The notes beneath the pieces were generated by a model that saw nothing but the letters and a program-made list of their open reading frames with translations, had not been told where the DNA came from and searched no databases. Positions 1 through 6,527 of a stretch of 8,979 nt of DNA are shown one piece after another (position 1 is the stretch's first letter; each line of letters begins with the position of its first letter). A program made the translations under genes and the position numbers. This DNA comes from a virus (Duplodnaviria > Heunggongvirae > Uroviricota > Caudoviricetes), in the IMG/VR virus record IMGVR_UViG_2585427789_000025. One strand, given 5' to 3'.

Positions 1-102
1 GCTAAGCAGGCTGAAAATCTGTCCGCTCTGGAGCAGGATATCACCAATCTGGAAAAAGCAGCGGCATTAAGCATTGCCAGAATGATTACATACCCACGTT
101 AA
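1..102 (+). CDS. C-terminal fragment of a hypothetical prophage protein (5' end outside window)
   Basis: Frame 1 is open from the window edge to TAA at 100-102 (...LEQDITNLEKAAALSIARMITYPR*). The next gene starts 22 nt downstream on the same strand. No function assignable. Confidence 0.4.
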   Translation, partial: AKQAENLSALEQDITNLEKAAALSIARMITYPR

Positions 103-124
103 TGGTTAACCAACGAGGCTAATA

Positions 125-532
125 ATGGAATTTAAAGATTTACCAAAAGAAATCCAGATAATTGCTGCAACGACACTCGGTGATAGTCTGGTGAAAATTG
201 ACCCGGCATACACCAAAAAAGAAACCATCGATAATATGGTTCGTAATGTGCGCAATGCTTTTTCTGGGCTATATGGTTCTGATAATCAAAAGCAGGAAAG
301 CGATGTTAATAAACGGGTAATTTCTGTTTGCGTGAATGGCCATGTTCTTTCATCAATCAAAACAGAAACGGCGACAGTCTTCGATTGCCTTTGCATTGTA
401 CAGAGCCTTGTTGATGCCCTGTTTCGTTCAGTGAATTTAGAAAATGATGCAAATCTGCGAGGGCGCACAATAGCACATCCATATGCACATACTTTAGGCT
501 CTGTGGATATCAAAGATCCCACAAATCTTTAA
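125..532 (+). CDS. Hypothetical protein, 135 aa
   Basis: ATG at 125 with GAGG about 8 nt upstream. The translation has non-repetitive, protein-like composition. No motif recognised. Confidence 0.5.
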   Translation: MEFKDLPKEIQIIAATTLGDSLVKIDPAYTKKETIDNMVRNVRNAFSGLYGSDNQKQESDVNKRVISVCVNGHVLSSIKTETATVFDCLCIVQSLVDALFRSVNLENDANLRGRTIAHPYAHTLGSVDIKDPTNL

Positions 533-743
533 TGAAATAGTTAACGCGAATTGTACTTGCTCTTTCAGTTGCTTTCAGAATACGCGTTGAAACTGCTGGC
601 GGTAATTTGGTATTCCATTTATTAAAATCATGCCCGGAAAAGTACTCTTCGAAAATACTTTTAACTGCAGACTCGCCTATTGAAATGCTGCTTACCATGC
701 GATTTTGATAAAGGCATTTAGCAATAAGAGTTGATTTTAACAT
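510..743 (-). CDS. Hypothetical small protein, 77 aa, convergent with and overlapping the 3' end of the 125-532 gene by 23 bp
   Basis: Minus-strand ATG at 743 is preceded by a consensus AGGAGG Shine-Dalgarno (reverse complement of 749-754, spacing 5 nt). No competing + strand ORF across 533-743. No motif recognised. Confidence 0.55.
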   Translation of the reverse strand: MLKSTLIAKCLYQNRMVSSISIGESAVKSIFEEYFSGHDFNKWNTKLPPAVSTRILKATERASTIRVNYFIKDLWDL

Positions 744-1052
744 TCACCCTCCTGAGGGTTGGTAATTAAGGAGTTCTCCACGGGTGAACATCCGGCACTG
801 ACAGTTTACTGAAAGGATATTTCTCTGAAAAGTCAGAGCATAACGCGAAAGCGCACGGCGAGGTTGCTGGTTCATAGATAGCCTGTCGTTAAATTTTCGT
901 CGACCGTGCGCTTCCGGTTGTGGCACTCCGCGAAATGGCGCGGCGGTAAGTATGGCGGGGTTATTCCTTCCCCGTTGAGGACACCGGGTTGTCAGGTTGA
1001 CCATACGCCTGAGTGACAACTCCGCTACAACAACCCATGTTGATTACCTTTT

Positions 1053-1096
1053 GGCGGGTATTCGTTTTGTTTTTCCCGTGATACCCGCCCCTTTTA
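1053..1096 (+). terminator. Terminator-like hairpin (9-bp stem GGCGGGTAT/ATACCCGCC, 19-nt loop) followed by CCTTTT
   Basis: Stem arms at 1053-1061 and 1081-1089 are perfectly complementary, with T-run 1092-1095 on the + strand. The loop is long for an intrinsic terminator, so a protein-binding palindrome or a leaky tL-type terminator are alternatives. Confidence 0.35.
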
Positions 1097-1100
1097 AAGT

Positions 1101-1254
1101 GAATTTTGTGATGCGGTGAATGCGGCTCAGCGCACGCGGAACAGTTAAAACAAGCGGTCTTTTACTTGCGTAACAGACATCAACTAACAATCCGGCGTTA
1201 ATGGTTTACTGGTTAACGTCACCTGGAGGCACCAGGCGCCGCATCACAAAATTC
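1101..1254. repeat. Perfect 16-bp inverted repeat (GAATTTTGTGATGCGG ... CCGCATCACAAAATTC) enclosing 122 bp, immediately upstream of the operon RBS
   Basis: 1101-1116 is the exact reverse complement of 1239-1254. The interior contains further short stems, such as CGTTAA / TTAACG around 1196-1218. The RBS GAGGA (1261-1265) and ATG 1273 follow directly. Confidence 0.6.
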
Positions 1255-1272
1255 ATTGTTGAGGACGCGATA

Positions 1273-1461
1273 ATGGAAACGTTATTACCAAACGTTAATA
1301 CGTCTGAAGGTTGTTTTGAAATTGGTGTCACTATCAGTAACCCAGTATTTACTGAAGATGCCATTAACAAGAGAAAACAAGAACGGGAGCTATTAAATAA
1401 AATATGCATTGTTTCAATGCTGGCCCGTTTACGCCTGATGCAAAAAGGATGCTGGCAATGA
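1273..1461 (+). CDS. Small hypothetical protein, 62 aa
   Basis: ATG at 1273 with GAGGA at 1261-1265 (spacing 7). The track ORF 1201-1461 is an upstream extension of the same frame with no RBS. The stop overlaps the next start in an ATGA motif (1458-1461). Confidence 0.5.
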   Translation: METLLPNVNTSEGCFEIGVTISNPVFTEDAINKRKQERELLNKICIVSMLARLRLMQKGCWQ

Positions 1462-1661
1462 ATACTACATTTGCACTTGTTCTGACGGTTTTTCTTGTTT
1501 CCGGTGAACCGGTTGACATGGTTACTGGCGTATACGGCTCAATGAAAGAATGCATGGTTGCCGCAGCGGAACAGAAAATTCCCGGTAACTGTTATCCGGT
1601 CGATAAAGTTATTCACATGGATAATAACGAAATCCCGGCAGGACTTAAAACAGCACCGTAA
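1458..1661 (+). CDS. Small protein with N-terminal hydrophobic segment (signal peptide or membrane anchor), 67 aa
   Basis: ATG at 1458 with AAGGA ending 8 nt upstream, coupled by ATGA overlap to the preceding gene. The N-terminus MNTTFALVLTVFLVSG is hydrophobic. The track ORF 1404-1661 starts upstream in the same frame, but only the 1458 ATG has a properly spaced RBS. Confidence 0.5.
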   Translation: MNTTFALVLTVFLVSGEPVDMVTGVYGSMKECMVAAAEQKIPGNCYPVDKVIHMDNNEIPAGLKTAP

Positions 1662-1741
1662 TTAATATCCGGTTTCATTTTTATATGCCAGCAATGGCAG
1701 GGATTTGTTCACCCTTAAATCTGTAATGAGGTTAAAACAAA

Positions 1742-2746
1742 ATGAGTAAAGTCTTTATTTGCGCCGCCATTCCGGACGAACAGGCAATAAAGGAAGAAGG
1801 TGCAGTCGCTGTAGCCACTGCCATTGAAGCCGGCGACGAACGTCGCGCCCGTGCCAAATTTACCTGGCAATTCCTGGAGCAATATCCGGCTGCTCAGGAC
1901 TGCGCTTATAAATTTCTTGTCTGCGAGGATAAACCCGGCATGCCCCGCCCTGCCATCGACTCCTGGGATACCGAATATATGCTGGAAAACCGCTGGGATG
2001 AGGAAGGCGCTTCCTTTGTCCCGGTCGAACCAGAATCCGATCCGATGATCGTCAATTTTGACAAGCTGTCCCTTGAAGTACAGAACGCGGTCCTGGTTAA
2101 GTTCGGTACATGTGAAAACATCACCGTTGATATGGTGATTAGCGCGCAGGAATTGTTGCAGGAAGACATGGCAACATTCGACGGACATATCGTTGAAGCG
2201 TTGATGAAAATGCCAGAAGTTAACGCCATGTATCCGGAGCTTAAGCTGCATGCCATCGGGTGGGTTAAGCATAAATGTATTCCTAGTGCCAAATGGCCCG
2301 AAATTCAGGCAGAGATGCGCATCTGGAAAAAACGTCGCGAAGGTGAACGCAAGGAAACCGGAAAATACACGTCTGTTGTTGATCTCGCCCGCGCCAGAGC
2401 CAATCAACAGTACACTGAAAATTCAACAGGAAAAATCAGCCCGGTCATTGCTGCCATTCATCGCGAATACAAGCAGACATGGAAAACACTGGATGACGAA
2501 CTGGCCTACGCTCTCTGGCCTGGTGATGTGGATGCCGGAAACATTGACGGCAGCATCCATCGCTGGGCAAAAAATGAAGTTATCGACAACGACCGCGAAG
2601 ACTGGAAGCGTATCTCGGCATCGATGCGCAAACAGCCTGATGCCCTTCGCTACGACCGCCAGACTATTTTTGGCCTTGTCCGTGAGCGTCCGATCGACAT
2701 TCACAAAGATCCTGTGGCACTGAACAAATATATTGCGAATACCTGA
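1742..2746 (+). CDS. Hypothetical acidic protein, 334 aa (prophage accessory protein of unknown function)
   Basis: Long ORF with TGAGG about 12 nt upstream of ATG 1742 and a hydrophilic, Asp/Glu-rich translation. The antisense ORFs 1715-2407 and 1906-2292 are shorter and Phe/His/Cys-rich, so judged spurious. No catalytic motif recognised. Confidence 0.7.
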   Translation: MSKVFICAAIPDEQAIKEEGAVAVATAIEAGDERRARAKFTWQFLEQYPAAQDCAYKFLVCEDKPGMPRPAIDSWDTEYMLENRWDEEGASFVPVEPESDPMIVNFDKLSLEVQNAVLVKFGTCENITVDMVISAQELLQEDMATFDGHIVEALMKMPEVNAMYPELKLHAIGWVKHKCIPSAKWPEIQAEMRIWKKRREGERKETGKYTSVVDLARARANQQYTENSTGKISPVIAAIHREYKQTWKTLDDELAYALWPGDVDAGNIDGSIHRWAKNEVIDNDREDWKRISASMRKQPDALRYDRQTIFGLVRERPIDIHKDPVALNKYIANT

Positions 2747-2766
2747 CTACAAAGGGCGTGTTTGAG

Positions 2767-3111
2767 ATGAAGGAAGAGATCTGGGCGCTGTTGATGTTCT
2801 CTCGTCGTCAGTACCAGAAACTGATGCAGTGGAAACGGGTATCTGATATCGCAAAAACTGAATGCGCGGTGGAAGTTGAACCATCTGTAGAGCGTGAGGG
2901 GCCGTTCTATTTCCTCTTCGCCGATAAGGATGGCGAAAAATACGGTCGCGCAAACAAACTTTCTGGTCTGGATAAGGCGCTGGCTGCTGGGGCTACTGAA
3001 ATCACGAAAGAAGAATATTTTGCCCGCAAAAATGGTACATACTCGGGTTTACCGCAAAATGTTGGTGCCTCTGAAGACCGCACAGCCAGAGCCGGTAAAA
3101 GTTACCGCTGA
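2767..3111 (+). CDS. Hypothetical protein, about 114 aa (start at ATG 2767; alternative GTG 2758)
   Basis: Frame 1 ORF begins 21 nt after the stop of the upstream gene, with AAGGG about 10 nt upstream of ATG 2767. Composition is protein-like. Its 3' end overlaps the 5' region of the downstream exonuclease frame. Confidence 0.55.
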
Positions 3112-4207
3112 CGAAGTAAACAAAATTATGCAGGCAGCCAATATCAGCCAGCCTGACGCCGATAAGTTGCTTGCTGCATCACGTGGTGAATTTGTTGAAG
3201 GGATTAGTGACCCGAATGATCCGAAATGGGTTAAGGGGATCCAGACCCGCGATTCTGTGAACCAGAACCAGCATGAATCGGAACGGAACTACCAGAAAGC
3301 GGAACAAAACAGCCCAAATGCGTTACAAAACGAGCCAGAAACGAAACAGCCTGAACCAGTGGTGCAACAGGAAGTGGAAAAAGTCTGCACCGCCTGCGGT
3401 CAGAGCGGTGGTGGCAACTGCCCTGATTGTGGTGCGGTGATGGGCGACGCAACATACCAGGAAACATTCGATGACGAGTATCAGGTTGAAGTTCAGGAAG
3501 ATGATTCGGAGGAAATGGAAGGCGCTGAACATCCACACAAGGAGAATGCTGGCGGCGCTCAGGATCACGCTAGCGATAGTGAAACTGGCGAGACGGCAGA
3601 TCACCCAATTAAGGTGAACGGTCATCACGAAATCACATCCACCAGCAGGACGTGTGACCATCTAATGATCGACCTTGAAACCATGGGAAAAAATCCTGAT
3701 GCCCCGATCATCTCAATAGGTGCAATATTTTTCGATCCGCAAACCGGAGATATGGGACCGGAATTTAGTAAGACTATCGATCTGGAAACTGCTGGCGGAG
3801 TCATTGATCGGGACACCATTAAATGGTGGCTTAAGCAATCACGCGAAGCGCAATCTGCCATTATGACCGATGAAATCCCGTTAGATGATGCACTGTTACA
3901 ATTGCGGGAATTTATCGACGAAAACTCCGGTGAATTTTTTGTTCAGGTCTGGGGAAATGGAGCCAACTTCGACAACACGATTTTGCGCCGTTCATACGAA
4001 CGGCAGGGGATCCCCTGCCCGTGGCGTTACTACAACGATCGCGATGTACGCACAATCGTTGAGCTGGGGAAAGCCATAGACTTCGATGCCAGAACGGCTA
4101 TTCCATTCGAAGGTGAGCGCCATAATGCACTTGATGACGCTCGTTACCAGGCAAAATACGTTTCAGCTATCTGGCAAAAACTGATCCCGAGTCAGGCTGA
4201 TTTTTAA
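3059..4207 (+). CDS. DEDDh-type 3'-5' exonuclease (DnaQ-like fold) with a disordered acidic linker and a CxxC-x7-CxxC zinc-ribbon; start codon uncertain
   Basis: The C-terminal roughly 190 aa carries the three exonuclease motifs in order: MIDLETMG (Exo I, D-x-E), [13 protein letters not shown] (Exo II) and [10 protein letters not shown] (Exo III, H-x4-D). Upstream lie a Q/E/P-rich low-complexity stretch and [16 protein letters not shown]. The track ORF starts at 2894, but its first 55 codons are Arg/Ser/Trp-rich junk lying over the frame-1 gene. No in-frame ATG (3032, 3059, 3128) has a convincing RBS. Confidence 0.7.
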
Positions 4208-4221
4208 TGTTCAACCCTAAT

Positions 4222-4249
4222 TGCCGCTAACCGTATATAGTTAGCGGCG
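4222..4249. promoter_or_regulatory. Palindrome (9-bp arms GCCGCTAAC / GTTAGCGGC, 8-nt loop CGTATATA) just upstream of the excisionase-like gene; candidate operator or promoter element
   Basis: 4223-4231 is complementary to 4240-4248. The loop holds TATATA (4234-4239), with TTCAAC (4210-4215) 18 bp upstream as a weak -35. There is no downstream T-tract, so an intrinsic terminator is unlikely. Confidence 0.3.
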
Positions 4250-4265
4250 GTTATGAGATATAGCT

Positions 4266-4469
4266 ATGAGCAGCTTATTTTTAACCGAAGATGAATTGCT
4301 AATATTAACGGGCTGCAAATATGCAAGCCACCAGCGAAAATGGTTAATGGAAAACGGGCTTCCGTTCTATACCAATCGTAGTGGCAAACCGATTGTCAGC
4401 CGGGATCTATTTACCTGCAATAAAACTTTACCACCACGCGAGGTAGAGCCGAATTTTGGTGCGATCTGA
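4266..4469 (+). CDS. Excisionase-like small DNA-binding protein (resembles the DUF4224-type proteins found next to phage integrases), 67 aa
   Basis: Sits immediately upstream of the integrase, and its stop overlaps the integrase start (TGATG at 4467-4471). The family call is from memory of the conserved N-terminal pattern, not from a search. Confidence 0.6.
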   Translation: MSSLFLTEDELLILTGCKYASHQRKWLMENGLPFYTNRSGKPIVSRDLFTCNKTLPPREVEPNFGAI

Positions 4470-5494
4470 TGGGAAGACGAAGGAAAAATCCTGAACACGA
4501 AAAATTACCTCCAAATGTATACCCAAATAAATATAGTTATGTATGGAAACCAACATCCAGAGAATCTGTCACACTAACCGCCATCAAGGATGGTTTAGCT
4601 GCTTTATGGAAAAAGTATGAGGAAACTGTAAATAATCGCGATCGTGCAATGACATTCGGTCGCTTGTGGGAAAAATTCCTCGCCAGCGCCTATTACAGTG
4701 ACCTTAGTCCAAGAACACAAAAAGATTATCTGCAACATCAAAAAAAGTTGCTTGCCGTATTCGGTAAGGTACCAGCGGATTCCATAAAACCAGAACACAT
4801 CCGTCGATACATGGACAAAAGAGGGGAGCAGAGTAAAACGCAAGCCAACCATGAAAAAAGCAGTATGTCCCGTGTTTACAGTTGGGGGTATGAGCGAGGG
4901 TACGTGAAGGCTAACCCATGTGCAGGTGTAAGTAAATTCAAGGCCAAAAACCGCGAACGATATGTAACCGACAAAGAATACCAGGCAGTATTAAGCGTTG
5001 CACCTCTTCCTGTTTTTATCGCAATGGAAATTGCCTATCTGTGTGCAGCGAGGGTTTCCGATGTGTTATCGCTGAAATGGGAACAGATTGGAAACGACGG
5101 GATATTCATCCAGCAAGGGAAAACCGGAAAAAAACAGATAAAAGCATGGAGTCCACGATTACAGGCAGCGATCGAAAAAGCAAAACAGTTGCCAAAATCT
5201 GCCTATGTGATCAGCAATCAATACGGCAACCGATATATGTACAAAGGCTTTAACGAAATGTGGGTAGATGCAAGAAATCGTGCTGGAAAAATTTCAGGTA
5301 TTTTAACCGACTTCACCTTTCATGATCTGAAGGCGAAAGGAATTTCAGACTATGAAGGAAGCAGCCGGGATAAGCAACTTTTCTCTGGTCACAAAACCGA
5401 AGGGCAAGTGCTAATCTATGACAGGAAGGTTAAAGTTTCACCAACACTTGATGTCCCGTTACCTGAAAATATTCCAAGAAAATATTCCAAGTAA
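4469..5494 (+). CDS. int: Lambda-family tyrosine integrase, 341 aa
   Basis: N-terminus MGRRRKNPEHEKLPPNVY resembles the lambda Int arm-binding N-terminus (MGRRR...LPPN.Y). Catalytic-domain blocks align by eye to lambda Int: AARVSDVLSLKWEQI (Arg I), GKTGKK (Lys), FHDLKAKGISDYE (His with Lys in the Arg II position), SGHK (His) and LIYDR (Tyr). The gene ends 52 bp from the 3' end of serU. Confidence 0.9.
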   Translation: MGRRRKNPEHEKLPPNVYPNKYSYVWKPTSRESVTLTAIKDGLAALWKKYEETVNNRDRAMTFGRLWEKFLASAYYSDLSPRTQKDYLQHQKKLLAVFGKVPADSIKPEHIRRYMDKRGEQSKTQANHEKSSMSRVYSWGYERGYVKANPCAGVSKFKAKNRERYVTDKEYQAVLSVAPLPVFIAMEIAYLCAARVSDVLSLKWEQIGNDGIFIQQGKTGKKQIKAWSPRLQAAIEKAKQLPKSAYVISNQYGNRYMYKGFNEMWVDARNRAGKISGILTDFTFHDLKAKGISDYEGSSRDKQLFSGHKTEGQVLIYDRKVKVSPTLDVPLPENIPRKYSK

Positions 5495-5546: not shown

Positions 5547-5636
5547 TGGCGGAGAGAGGGGGATTTGAACCCCCGGTGGAGTTGCCCCCACTCCGGTTTT
5601 CGAGACCGGTCCGTTCAGCCGCTCCGGCATCTCTCC
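5547..5636 (-). tRNA. serU: tRNA-Ser (anticodon CGA), 90 nt with long variable arm
   Basis: Reverse complement of 5547-5636 reads GGAGAGATGCCGGAGCGGCTGAACGGACCGGTCTCGAAAACCGG...GGGGGTTCAAATCCCCCTCTCTCCGCCA. It has an acceptor stem, anticodon loop CTCGAAA (anticodon CGA), a class II variable arm and a 3' CCA. Confidence 0.9.
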
Positions 5637-5729
5637 GTTCAGATGGTTGCCATGATGCCAGGAAATTTGGCATTTTAACAGTCCCTGTCCGTGCAATTTT
5701 GTTCAAGTGACGAGTTTGCGAGCAAAACG

Positions 5730-6527
5730 ATGATTAAGTGGCCCTGGAAAGTACAAGAATCAGCACATCAAACTGCCCTTCCCTGGCAGGAAGCACTATC
5801 GATCCCCCTTTTAACGGGTCTGACGGAACAGGAACAAAGCAAATTAGTCACTCTTGCCGAACGTTTTTTACAGCAAAAGCGGCTTGTTCCTTTACAGGGC
5901 TTTGAACTGGATTCATTAAGAAGCTGCCGGATAGCACTTCTATTTTGCCTACCCGTTCTGGAGTTAGGACTGGAATGGCTGGATGGTTTTCATGAAGTCT
6001 TAATTTATCCTGCGCCATTTGTGGTCGATGATGAATGGGAAGACGATATCGGTCTGGTGCATAACCAACGTATTGTTCAGTCAGGTCAGAGCTGGCAGCA
6101 AGGGCCTATCGTTTTGAACTGGTTGGATATACAAGATTCTTTTGATGCTTCTGGTTTTAACCTGATTATTCATGAAGTCGCTCATAAGCTGGACACCCGT
6201 AACGGCGATCGCGCCAGCGGAGTTCCCTTTATTCCGTTGCGTGAGGTTGCTGGCTGGGAACACGATCTTCATGCTGCAATGAACAACATTCAGGAAGAAA
6301 TCGAATTGGTTGGCGAGAATGCGGCGAGCATTGATGCTTATGCTGCCAGTGATCCTGCTGAATGTTTTGCCGTACTTTCTGAATATTTCTTTAGCGCCCC
6401 AGAACTTTTTGCTCCTCGTTTCCCTTCATTGTGGCAACGTTTCTGCCAATTTTATCAACAAGATCCTTTGCTGAGACTGCATCACGCTAATGATACAGAC
6501 TCGTTTTCGGCGACGAATGTTCATTAA
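5730..6527 (+). CDS. mtfA: Mlc titration factor A (MtfA/YeeI), 265 aa
   Basis: The translation from ATG 5730 ([29 protein letters not shown]...) matches my recollection of E. coli MtfA, including the HEVAH zinc-peptidase motif. The track ORF from 5691 is an upstream extension of the same frame. Confidence 0.88.

Follow-up and report, generated by a model that had tools for sequence, protein, structure and literature searches.

DicF was among the first bacterial small RNAs described, and the 340 nt ahead of it have so far gone under the unspecific names "long untranslated region" (UTR) or "ydfC 3' UTR." In Escherichia coli K-12, DicF is known for Hfq binding and cell-division inhibition (PMC5069750). 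Its 5' end is generated by RNase E and its 3' end either by termination, which gives a form of 53 nt, or by RNase III, which gives a form of 72 nt (PMC5069750, PMC9438474); the RNase III form is thus 19 nt longer (PMC5069750). A second system that bears on the present locus is the putL/putR pair of HK022, which are cis-acting folded RNAs that lie ahead of terminators in the early operons of a lambdoid phage without functional N (PMC9378689).

Here we describe positions 744 to 1100 of an 8,979-nt stretch of viral DNA (IMG/VR record IMGVR_UViG_2585427789_000025; the whole stretch is called the window). The window represents the early-left arm of an E. coli lambdoid prophage. An earlier note, made from the letters of the window, had proposed that this segment may encode either a non-coding RNA or signals for termination or antitermination in a lambdoid early-left operon. 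That proposal is supported by the homology of the locus, by a terminator at the DicF position, and by a covarying RNA fold, although the earlier note did not recognize DicF or dicB or see the pseudoknotted four-way junction that we report. The dicBF untranslated region is known and is a textbook locus; what appears to be new is an unannotated, pseudoknotted RNA ahead of DicF and the diversity of alleles at the DicF position. Our literature search, which did not extend to the P1 genome paper, turned up no account of a structured element ahead of dicF.

Segment 744 to 1100 corresponds to a non-coding dicF region

As the K-12 reference we used NC_000913 1647500 to 1651000 (locus L002), in which dicF lies at locus positions 1883 to 1935. 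Comparison with related prophages, which the earlier note had suggested, aligns the segment at ~96% with the K-12 Qin ydfC-dicF-dicB untranslated region. In the alignment, positions 754 to 1030 are ~96% identical to Qin between ydfC and dicF, and positions 1091 to 1150 and 1190 to 1272 are near-identical to the K-12 dicF-dicB spacer; the DicF core alone is replaced. We conclude that the segment corresponds to the "dicF region" of an early-left operon of the dicBF type; it is non-coding and is read on the plus strand, from left to right.

The hairpin density reported by the earlier note is borne out. Its three stems are exact: 850 to 858 (AGCGCACGG) with 904 to 912 (CCGTGCGCT), 928 to 932 (CCGCG) with 939 to 943 (CGCGG), and 1053 to 1061 (GGCGGGTAT) with 1081 to 1089 (ATACCCGCC). 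All three are also found by a repeat scan, which lengthens the first to 13 nt at 92% complementarity (846 to 858 with 904 to 916). The predicted plus-strand fold of the segment has an energy of -127.3 kcal/mol, compared with -110.5 ± 5.3 kcal/mol for shuffled sequences (z = -3.17; 0 of 100 shuffles as good), and the minus-strand fold has a z of -2.71. The description "GC-rich" holds only in a moderate sense, as the segment has 51.3% GC, compared with 46.5% for the whole window and 39.6% for positions 1 to 743.

The earlier note also saw no plausible coding frame. Open reading frames (ORFs) do exist, namely, a 91-aa frame with a TTG start on the minus strand (744 to 1019) and a 40-aa frame with a TTG start (997 to 1119); the former, the only long one, carries no coding signal. 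The alternative that the segment codes on the minus strand through the 91-aa frame, or is merely a DNA-level promoter or operator region for the flanking genes, can point to minus-strand open stretches of 70 to 119 codons in many E. coli copies, to a hypothetical protein annotated there in some phage records, and to the need of the neighboring 77-aa gene for a promoter somewhere within ~760 to 900. In contrast, variable sites among homologues are distributed over the three codon positions of the minus-strand frame as 14/10/12 and 12/14/10, with no third-position excess; frameshifting one-base indels are common within it; and it is closed in phage P1 and several other homologues. RefSeq (PGAP) annotates no coding sequence in the segment, either in an identical locus or in K-12, and the compensatory changes and G.U bias described below indicate an RNA structure on the plus strand. 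We regard this alternative as very improbable: segment 744 to 1100 is non-coding. Among the phage records with a "hypothetical protein" antisense to the core RNA is locus L145 (5045 to 5500, minus strand); such annotations are probably a gene-caller artifact of the open minus-strand frame.

A pseudoknotted RNA domain lies ahead of the DicF position

Positions 846 to 1031 form a domain of ~190 nt, which consists of a hairpin (P0) followed by a four-way junction (helices P1 to P4) with a loop-to-junction pseudoknot. The first two stems of the earlier note lie inside it. The elements of the domain and of its 5' flank are as follows.

823-838, plus strand: small hairpin P(-1), CUCUGA (823-828) with UCAGAG (833-838)
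839-844, plus strand: CAUAAC segment, which can pair with GUUGUG (917-922), extending P0 and excluding helix P1
846-916, plus strand: long hairpin P0, 846-858 with 904-916, apical part variable (repeat scan)
917-1031, plus strand: four-way-junction core (alignment of 30 diverse copies)
917-923 with 1025-1031, plus strand: helix P1
928-932 with 939-943, plus strand: helix P2, the second stem of the earlier note
944-947 with 983-986, plus strand: helix P3
956-960 with 970-974, plus strand: helix P3b, with a CU-rich loop at 961-969
987-994 with 1014-1021, plus 995-997 with 1007-1009, plus strand: helix P4
950-955 with 1001-1006, plus strand: pseudoknot, GUAUGG in the P3 internal loop with CCAUAC in the P4 loop, paired in all alignment cells

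In the alignment of 30 diverse sequences, standard pairs occupy 93.1% of the cells of the proposed helices, compared with 32 to 56% when the partners are slid by 1 to 3 columns. Both sides of the pair have changed at 13 pairs, a number equalled by 0 of 500 shuffles, although this control overstates significance since many of the aligned sequences are close relatives. RNAalifold, which was blind to the proposed structure, recovered P1, P2, P3, P3b, and P4. Individual helices show the same pattern. The P4 strands GUUGUCA/UGACAAC become GUUGCCA/UGGCAAC in phages P1 and P7 and GUAACCA/UGGUUAC in Izhakiella, and a U-A pair in helix P3 becomes C-G in phage P7. The pseudoknot strands read GUAUGG/CCAUAC in the lambdoid copies and in P7 and GCAUGG/CCAUGC in phage P1, and a U.G intermediate occurs in four sequences. 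G.U pairs occur in 57 cells when the structure is read on the plus strand and in 19 when it is read on the minus strand, and it is on the plus strand that dicB and the terminator are read. A covariance model built for the core scores 143.9 bits at 913 to 1042 and finds one copy per locus.

The hairpins that flank or cap the core vary in sequence and are kept as structures. P3b (at least 4 bp) forms in 40 of 41 distinct versions, which have 18 different stem sequences. P0 is formed by all 25 distinct strand pairs (25/25), with an enclosed span of 62 to 159 nt and with compensatory differences among the E. coli, Erwinia, L052, and Trabulsiella types. P(-1) is CCCUGA/UCAGGG in other E. coli copies, which is a compensatory change. 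CAUAAC (839 to 844) is CACAAC in most lineages; the motif is kept across genera, and there are no double changes by which its pairing could be tested.

No Rfam family matched the upstream domain. Over the whole window and a permissive scan of 700 to 1300, Rfam gave only tRNAs elsewhere, a sub-threshold STnc100 match in the adjacent sequence, and chance matches at an E value of ~6; within the segment there was no match to a DicF, C4, JUMPstart, ribozyme, or riboswitch model.

Two side observations concern the same stretch of RNA. A direct repeat, CGCGAAAGCGCACGGCG (844 to 860) and CGCGAAATGGCGCGGCG (929 to 945), has its copies 85 nt apart. The copies in L013, L031, and L076 (one of them from Shigella flexneri) have apparent deletions between these repeats and are without P0, the 5' strand of helix P1, and half of P2.

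The core is widespread and stands early in phage operons

By BLAST, the core is present in 4,316 of 5,426 complete E. coli genomes (80%), at 8,947 places, none of which is annotated, and also in ~500 P1-like plasmids of Escherichia, Salmonella, Klebsiella, and Shigella. When one genome per species was scanned by pattern, it turned up in Escherichia, Shigella, Citrobacter, Serratia symbiotica, Trabulsiella, Erwinia tracheiphila, and Izhakiella, and further loci came from a pattern scan of viral contigs, among the matches listed.

A search of distant phage genomes matched positions 928 to 1024 to phages P1 and P7, just downstream of the C1-controlled Pban promoter, with the domain ~20 nt past the Pban start. 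The P1 match overlaps a misc_feature called "dicF-like region" (NC_005856 68791 to 68892), a label that rests on sequence similarity alone. In the P1 locus (L003), the Pban -10 element is at 2453 to 2458, the core is at 2486 to 2613, and a scan-confirmed intrinsic terminator is at 2619 to 2638, followed by TTTTTT. Past this terminator lie tRNA genes and then ban, up to 2.6 kb farther on, and the record states that the operator controls ban. In phage cdtI, the cI terminator is followed by a sigma-70 promoter (11/12 match) that overlaps a perfect palindrome, then by a leader of ~280 nt, the core, a DicF-position hairpin/terminator, and the first early-left gene. The order in Citrobacter braakii is cI, core and terminator, xis, int, and in Erwinia and Izhakiella the core stands behind cI or a divergently oriented gene. 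Across 19 clusters of downstream sequence, a hairpin and a U-run lie ~9 to 60 nt past the core in all but one degenerate Shigella copy. No similarity to an N-type antiterminator was seen in any of the first early-left proteins that were examined.

In the non-dicB lineages L018, L022, L020, and L145, non-coding sequence is conserved past the terminator (e.g., L145 5176 to 5225), with a small hairpin included; it reads UUUUUACAAAACAGAGAA...CCGG.(C/U)GACGGG.UCAUAACCC. Conservation of this kind suggests that the read-through RNA is functional. Two direct repeats of TTGTTGGGGAWA, ~30 nt apart, are found in L023 at ~2150 to 2260 and also in L011, L046, L068, and L013; they lie upstream of one class of copies, before a divergent gene, and are candidate operator or promoter elements.

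The P1 arrangement, in which promoter, core, and terminator resemble a self-contained gene of ~180 nt, is what would be expected if the core were a stable trans-acting RNA whose gene ends at the terminator, acting through the P3b loop on Shine-Dalgarno sequences or by sequestration of a host protein. The P3b loop fits this in one respect, since it keeps a UCCUU or CCUCC-like sequence over the 18 different stem sequences; that it is always CU-rich despite the changing stem, and resembles the anti-Shine-Dalgarno sequence, is an observation in its own right. However, the conserved loops have no conserved 8-nt complement in the same loci, the core of K-12-type operons lies inside a polycistronic transcript with no promoter detected ahead of it, and the conserved sequence past the terminator implies functional read-through. 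A trans-acting role is, in our estimation, quite improbable.

A divergent hairpin replaces DicF

Immediately downstream of the core are the following features.

1032-1052, plus strand: A/U-rich linker, sequence unlike K-12, placed where RNase E makes the 5' end of DicF in K-12
1053-1095, plus strand: DicF-position hairpin and terminator, 1053-1061 with 1081-1089, 19-nt loop, U-tract at 1092-1095
1100-1116 with 1239-1255, plus strand: 17-bp perfect helix (repeat scan), which encloses the dicF-dicB spacer; same helix in K-12

The hairpin at 1053 to 1089, followed by CCUUUU, lies exactly at the position of K-12 DicF and its terminator. It keeps the base UUUGGCGG...CCGCCC(U)n, which is kept in at least 15 alleles. 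Compared with K-12 DicF, the allele in the window is without the 14-nt 5' tail UUUCUGGUGACGUU, has another apical stem and loop, and has a U-tract of four U. In the loci that we collected, at least 15 hairpin/terminator alleles stand behind the same upstream sequence, of which the K-12 type is the commonest (83/140). The allele described here occurs in ~150 of the 5,426 complete E. coli genomes and is annotated in none.

The 17-bp helix starts 5 nt past the U-tract and ends 17 nt before the dicB start codon. By analogy with K-12, it is likely to be where RNase III cuts to produce the longer form of DicF: a cut 19 nt past the terminated end fits a helix that begins 5 nt after the U-tract.

A conserved upstream sequence with many alleles behind it has the appearance of a fixed platform with variable small RNAs, and this bears on the view that the core is passive or serves processing only. 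It would then protect ~530 nt of untranslated RNA against Rho and exonucleases and place RNase E and RNase III so that a DicF-type small RNA is released, while termination itself would not be regulated by it. K-12 DicF is indeed cut from the same untranslated region by these two enzymes (PMC5069750, PMC9438474), the core is followed by an A/U-rich linker, and the alleles behind the conserved scaffold, at least 15 of them, differ in hairpin and seed. A passive barrier, however, needs no unpaired nucleotides or pseudoknot conserved from phage P1 to Erwinia prophages, and the linker has just 9 to 12 nt in phage P1, in Citrobacter, and in the cdtI type, where the hairpin looks like a plain terminator with no obvious seed. 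We therefore consider a purely passive or processing role somewhat unlikely.

The domain as a possible regulator of the adjacent terminator

The explanation that we favor, and to which we give a little better than even chances, is that the segment is a dicF region in which the conserved domain acts as a cis-acting leader and sets the outcome at the adjacent terminator. The nascent RNA would fold into P0 (846 to 916) and then into the pseudoknotted four-way junction (917 to 1031), and ~20 nt farther on the DicF-family hairpin and its short U-tract (1053 to 1095) would act as an intrinsic terminator. Polymerases that stop there would yield a short RNA, which RNase E would trim in the A/U-rich linker to a DicF-type small RNA of ~50 to 65 nt. 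Those that read through would transcribe dicB, the exonuclease, xis-like gene, and int, and RNase III would cut the helix formed by 1100 to 1116 and 1239 to 1255. The folded domain would decide, via the polymerase or a host factor, whether transcription stops at the adjacent terminator and perhaps also at terminators farther on. Alternatively, it might be a conformational attenuator in which GUUGUGG (917 to 923) switches between CAUAAC (839 to 844; extension of P0) and CUACAAC (1025 to 1031; helix P1). We infer each of three parts of this scheme: transcription of this copy, the RNase steps for the variant allele, and the effect of the domain on termination.

Cis control of termination is favored because the unpaired nucleotides and the pseudoknot are conserved from phage P1 to Erwinia prophages, because both cdtI-type early-left expression and P1 ban expression must pass a terminator, and because cdtI-type phages and P1 appear to be without N. 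On a rough split of the roles of the core, cis control by any mechanism takes about half, a scaffold for processing or stability alone a quarter or slightly more, a trans-acting RNA about a tenth, and other roles the remainder; the likelihoods that we attach to the rival explanations are independent estimates and need not match this split. A further step would be that 846 to 1031 represents a new class of phage cis-acting RNA, either for RNA-only antitermination or as a factor-sensing attenuator, which replaces N/nutL, with DicF as a terminated by-product and the downstream hairpins as interchangeable small RNAs on one platform. We offer this step tentatively, as possible rather than probable.

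Several points weigh against the favored explanation. The distance between promoter and domain is ~1 kb in prophages of the K-12 type, where the domain is not in a 5' leader. The minimum-free-energy fold of 830 to 1100 prefers the extension of P0 over helix P1. No covarying antiterminator was found: the CCGCY of J4/1-P1' can pair with the terminator GGCGG, with an A.C mismatch in several lineages, and minimum-free-energy folds of linker plus terminator show no antiterminator. In addition to the relatedness of the aligned sequences mentioned above, most loci were fetched by patterns that fix GCGG.AAG.ATGG and GGTTGACC, so that the invariance of both is partly built in, although the phage P1 and P7 copies, which were found by BLAST, share these stretches independently. 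Other points concern the hairpin. The Rfam DicF model (RF00039; gathering score, 48 bits) has no match in 700 to 1300 at an E value of ≤10, whereas the K-12 control scores 76.7 bits; the U-tract after the hairpin has just four U; and pairing of the variant loop with the ftsZ ribosome-binding site is predicted at -11.7 kcal/mol, compared with a shuffle mean of -13.8 kcal/mol. For K-12 DicF itself the values are -19.4 and -15.3 kcal/mol, with 11% of shuffles as good, which makes this a weak test even for the true DicF. Targeting of ftsZ by the variant hairpin, with complementarity no better than that of shuffles in this weak test, is unsupported, and the 1053 to 1095 hairpin may be a terminator only. 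Judged from its position and architecture, and with no Rfam match, it is best called a putative divergent DicF-family variant and intrinsic terminator. Since the Rfam DicF model misses whole alleles, genomic counts of "DicF" are too low, and targets may differ between prophages.

A sharper version of cis control would make the core put-like, that is, a protein-independent processive antiterminator in which the nascent RNA binds the polymerase and carries it past DicF and later terminators, standing in for N/nutL in N-less lambdoid phages and in the P1 ban operon. The core does occupy the nutL/putL position, being found after pL in cdtI, after cI in Citrobacter, Erwinia, and Izhakiella, and ~20 nt past the Pban start in P1, and an intrinsic terminator lies between the promoter and every downstream gene. 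No N-like protein was found among the first early-left proteins examined, and loop, junction, and pseudoknot nucleotides are shared by P1 and lambdoid phages, as would be expected for binding to a conserved host machine. In contrast, HK022 19000 to 32500, which is expected to hold putL and putR, gave neither a blastn match nor a match to the covariance model of the core. The fold is a four-way junction with a pseudoknot rather than two stem-loops of ~70 nt (PMC9378689), and each phage has a single copy, with no second copy in the early-right part of L001, a 19-kb locus that spans Q to integrase. An adjacent terminator is also the rule here, yet a put-like element has no need of one. We regard a put-like mechanism as somewhat unlikely.

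Gene context

The gene order in the window is the tail of ydfC, dicB, a DUF1482 gene, exonuclease, a DUF4224 excisionase-like gene, and integrase, with tRNA-Ser adjoining. The features around the segment are as follows.

Up to 102, same direction as dicB: ydfC (the window begins inside the gene)
125-532, plus strand, same direction as dicB: 135-aa gene, function unassigned (phrog_1363)
510-743, minus strand: 77-aa gene, function unassigned (phrog_10348, E = 2.7e-46; hypothetical protein in RefSeq)
744-822, no strand: spacer between the start of the 77-aa gene (ATG, complement of 741-743; Shine-Dalgarno sequence, complement near 750-754) and the structured RNA
1273-1461, plus strand: dicB, cell-division inhibitor, first downstream gene (Pfam DicB, E = 3e-40; RefSeq annotation of identical locus)
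1458-1661, after dicB: DUF1482 gene
1742-2746 and 2894-4207: exonuclease, in two ORFs
4469-5494: integrase, after the DUF4224 excisionase-like gene, abutting tRNA-Ser(CGA)

The placement of the segment between divergent transcription units, as the earlier note had it, is correct for the immediate left neighbor (510 to 743), which is on the minus strand, but not for ydfC and the gene at 125 to 532, which run in the direction of dicB. The genes at 125 to 532 and 510 to 743 are convergent with a 23-nt overlap, and both are inserted after ydfC relative to K-12 Qin; the orientation of the latter opposes the early-left operon. The spacer at 744 to 822 probably carries the promoter of this minus-strand gene. 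In a promoter scan no promoter there reached the threshold; by eye, the minus strand of 744 to 822 has a possible 8/12 match (TTTTCA-17-TAAACT). At position 785, 29 nt (GGTGGAGTGCGTGCGCCGGACACGGGTGC) that are present in K-12 and most E. coli copies are missing, and this deletion takes out the 5' half of a CCGGA...TCCGG hairpin.

In NZ_CP068155, which is 100% identical over 500 to 1700, the locus has Cro, a LexA-family repressor, and ydfA-ydfB-ydfC upstream and Q, RusA, and O/P-type replication genes on the other side. Over 1 to 4255 the near-identical prophage of NZ_CP068155 has 97.6% identity with 10 gaps, and its exonuclease gene is intact and single (2,472 bp). In the window, the ORF at 1742 to 2746 corresponds to residues 1 to 332 of an 823-aa phage exonuclease family, and the remainder is in 2894 to 4207. 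The prophage copy in the window is probably decaying. Past the integrase lie tRNA-Ser(CGA), mtfA, tRNA-Asn, and an ORF with Ig-like invasin repeats (in this order, 5547 to 5636 on the minus strand, 5691 to 6527, 6628 to 6703, and 7144 to 8463). An Rfam match to "Plastid-psbl-rps4" at 5550 to 5601 is spurious, being antisense to the tRNA-Ser gene.

Significance and comparison with known systems

A covariation-supported, pseudoknotted domain stands ahead of DicF in ~80% of the complete genomes of E. coli, frequently more than once per genome, and heads early operons in other Enterobacterales prophages and in phage P1. There is a substantial chance that it is a new class of phage regulatory RNA. 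If the domain controls the terminator, it would account for the partitioning between DicF and DicB, for early-left expression in N-less lambdoid phages, and for the passage of P1 from Pban to ban.

Several known elements were considered and set aside. A tRNA or tRNA-like RNA does not fit, as ARAGORN finds just tRNA-Ser and tRNA-Asn elsewhere in the window, Rfam finds no tRNA here, and mascRNA scores only E = 6.1; GGTTCAATTCC, which precedes the copies of Erwinia and Izhakiella, does not represent a tRNA gene. The invariant GGCGGTAAGTATGG (942 to 955) resembles the RfaH ops site, GGCGGTAGnnTG plus one base, which we take to be coincidental, since RNA pairing explains it better: a T-to-C change in P7 is compensated in helix P3. 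Of the boxA/boxC-like sequences, UGCUCUCUU is the 3' strand of P0 and GUUGUGG forms the 5' strand of helix P1; the P0 strand covaries, and the match is missing in the E. coli type. A hammerhead is not indicated by CUGAGUGA and GAAA, as neither the order nor the position of these motifs is right. With STnc100 (RF02076), the likeness is limited to the dicF-dicB spacer (1102 to 1250), outside the segment, where the match is below threshold (29.9 bits; gathering score, 47). STnc100 is likewise sub-threshold in K-12 (34.4 bits) and in a P1 stretch (L003 3842 to 3961). The antisense immunity RNAs C4 (P1/P7) and CI (P4) are also junction-type folded phage RNAs within an early operon; the Rfam C4 model has no match, and there are no conserved 8-nt complementary targets in the same loci.

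A terminator-type riboswitch or attenuator shares with this locus a covarying multi-helix domain, a pseudoknot, conserved unpaired bases, an intrinsic terminator within tens of nucleotides, and regulated genes downstream, but here the gene context hints at no ligand, no conserved antiterminator pairing was found, and the element is intercistronic in K-12-type operons. The put RNAs of HK022 are likewise folded RNAs before terminators in the early operon of an N-less lambdoid phage, and antitermination at the present locus would be by analogy with them. They suppress termination in cis with no protein factor, via the beta' zinc-binding domain. They differ in having no sequence or model similarity to the core, in fold, and in being two per phage, one behind each early promoter, whereas there is one copy here.

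The two closest systems are related to the present locus by sequence. The leader of the P1/P7 ban operon differs in having tRNA genes and ban, in place of dicB, downstream and in having a short terminator hairpin without a DicF-like body, but it has the same core, ~78% identical, with compensatory changes in helices P1, P3, P3b, and P4 and in the pseudoknot, and an intrinsic terminator next to it. The dicBF region of K-12 Qin (DicF, RF00039) differs in that the window has two extra genes between ydfC and the untranslated region and a replaced DicF core. It is otherwise the same locus, after ydfC and before dicB, with flanks that are ~96% identical and with the hairpin base, the U-tract, and the 17-bp helix all kept.

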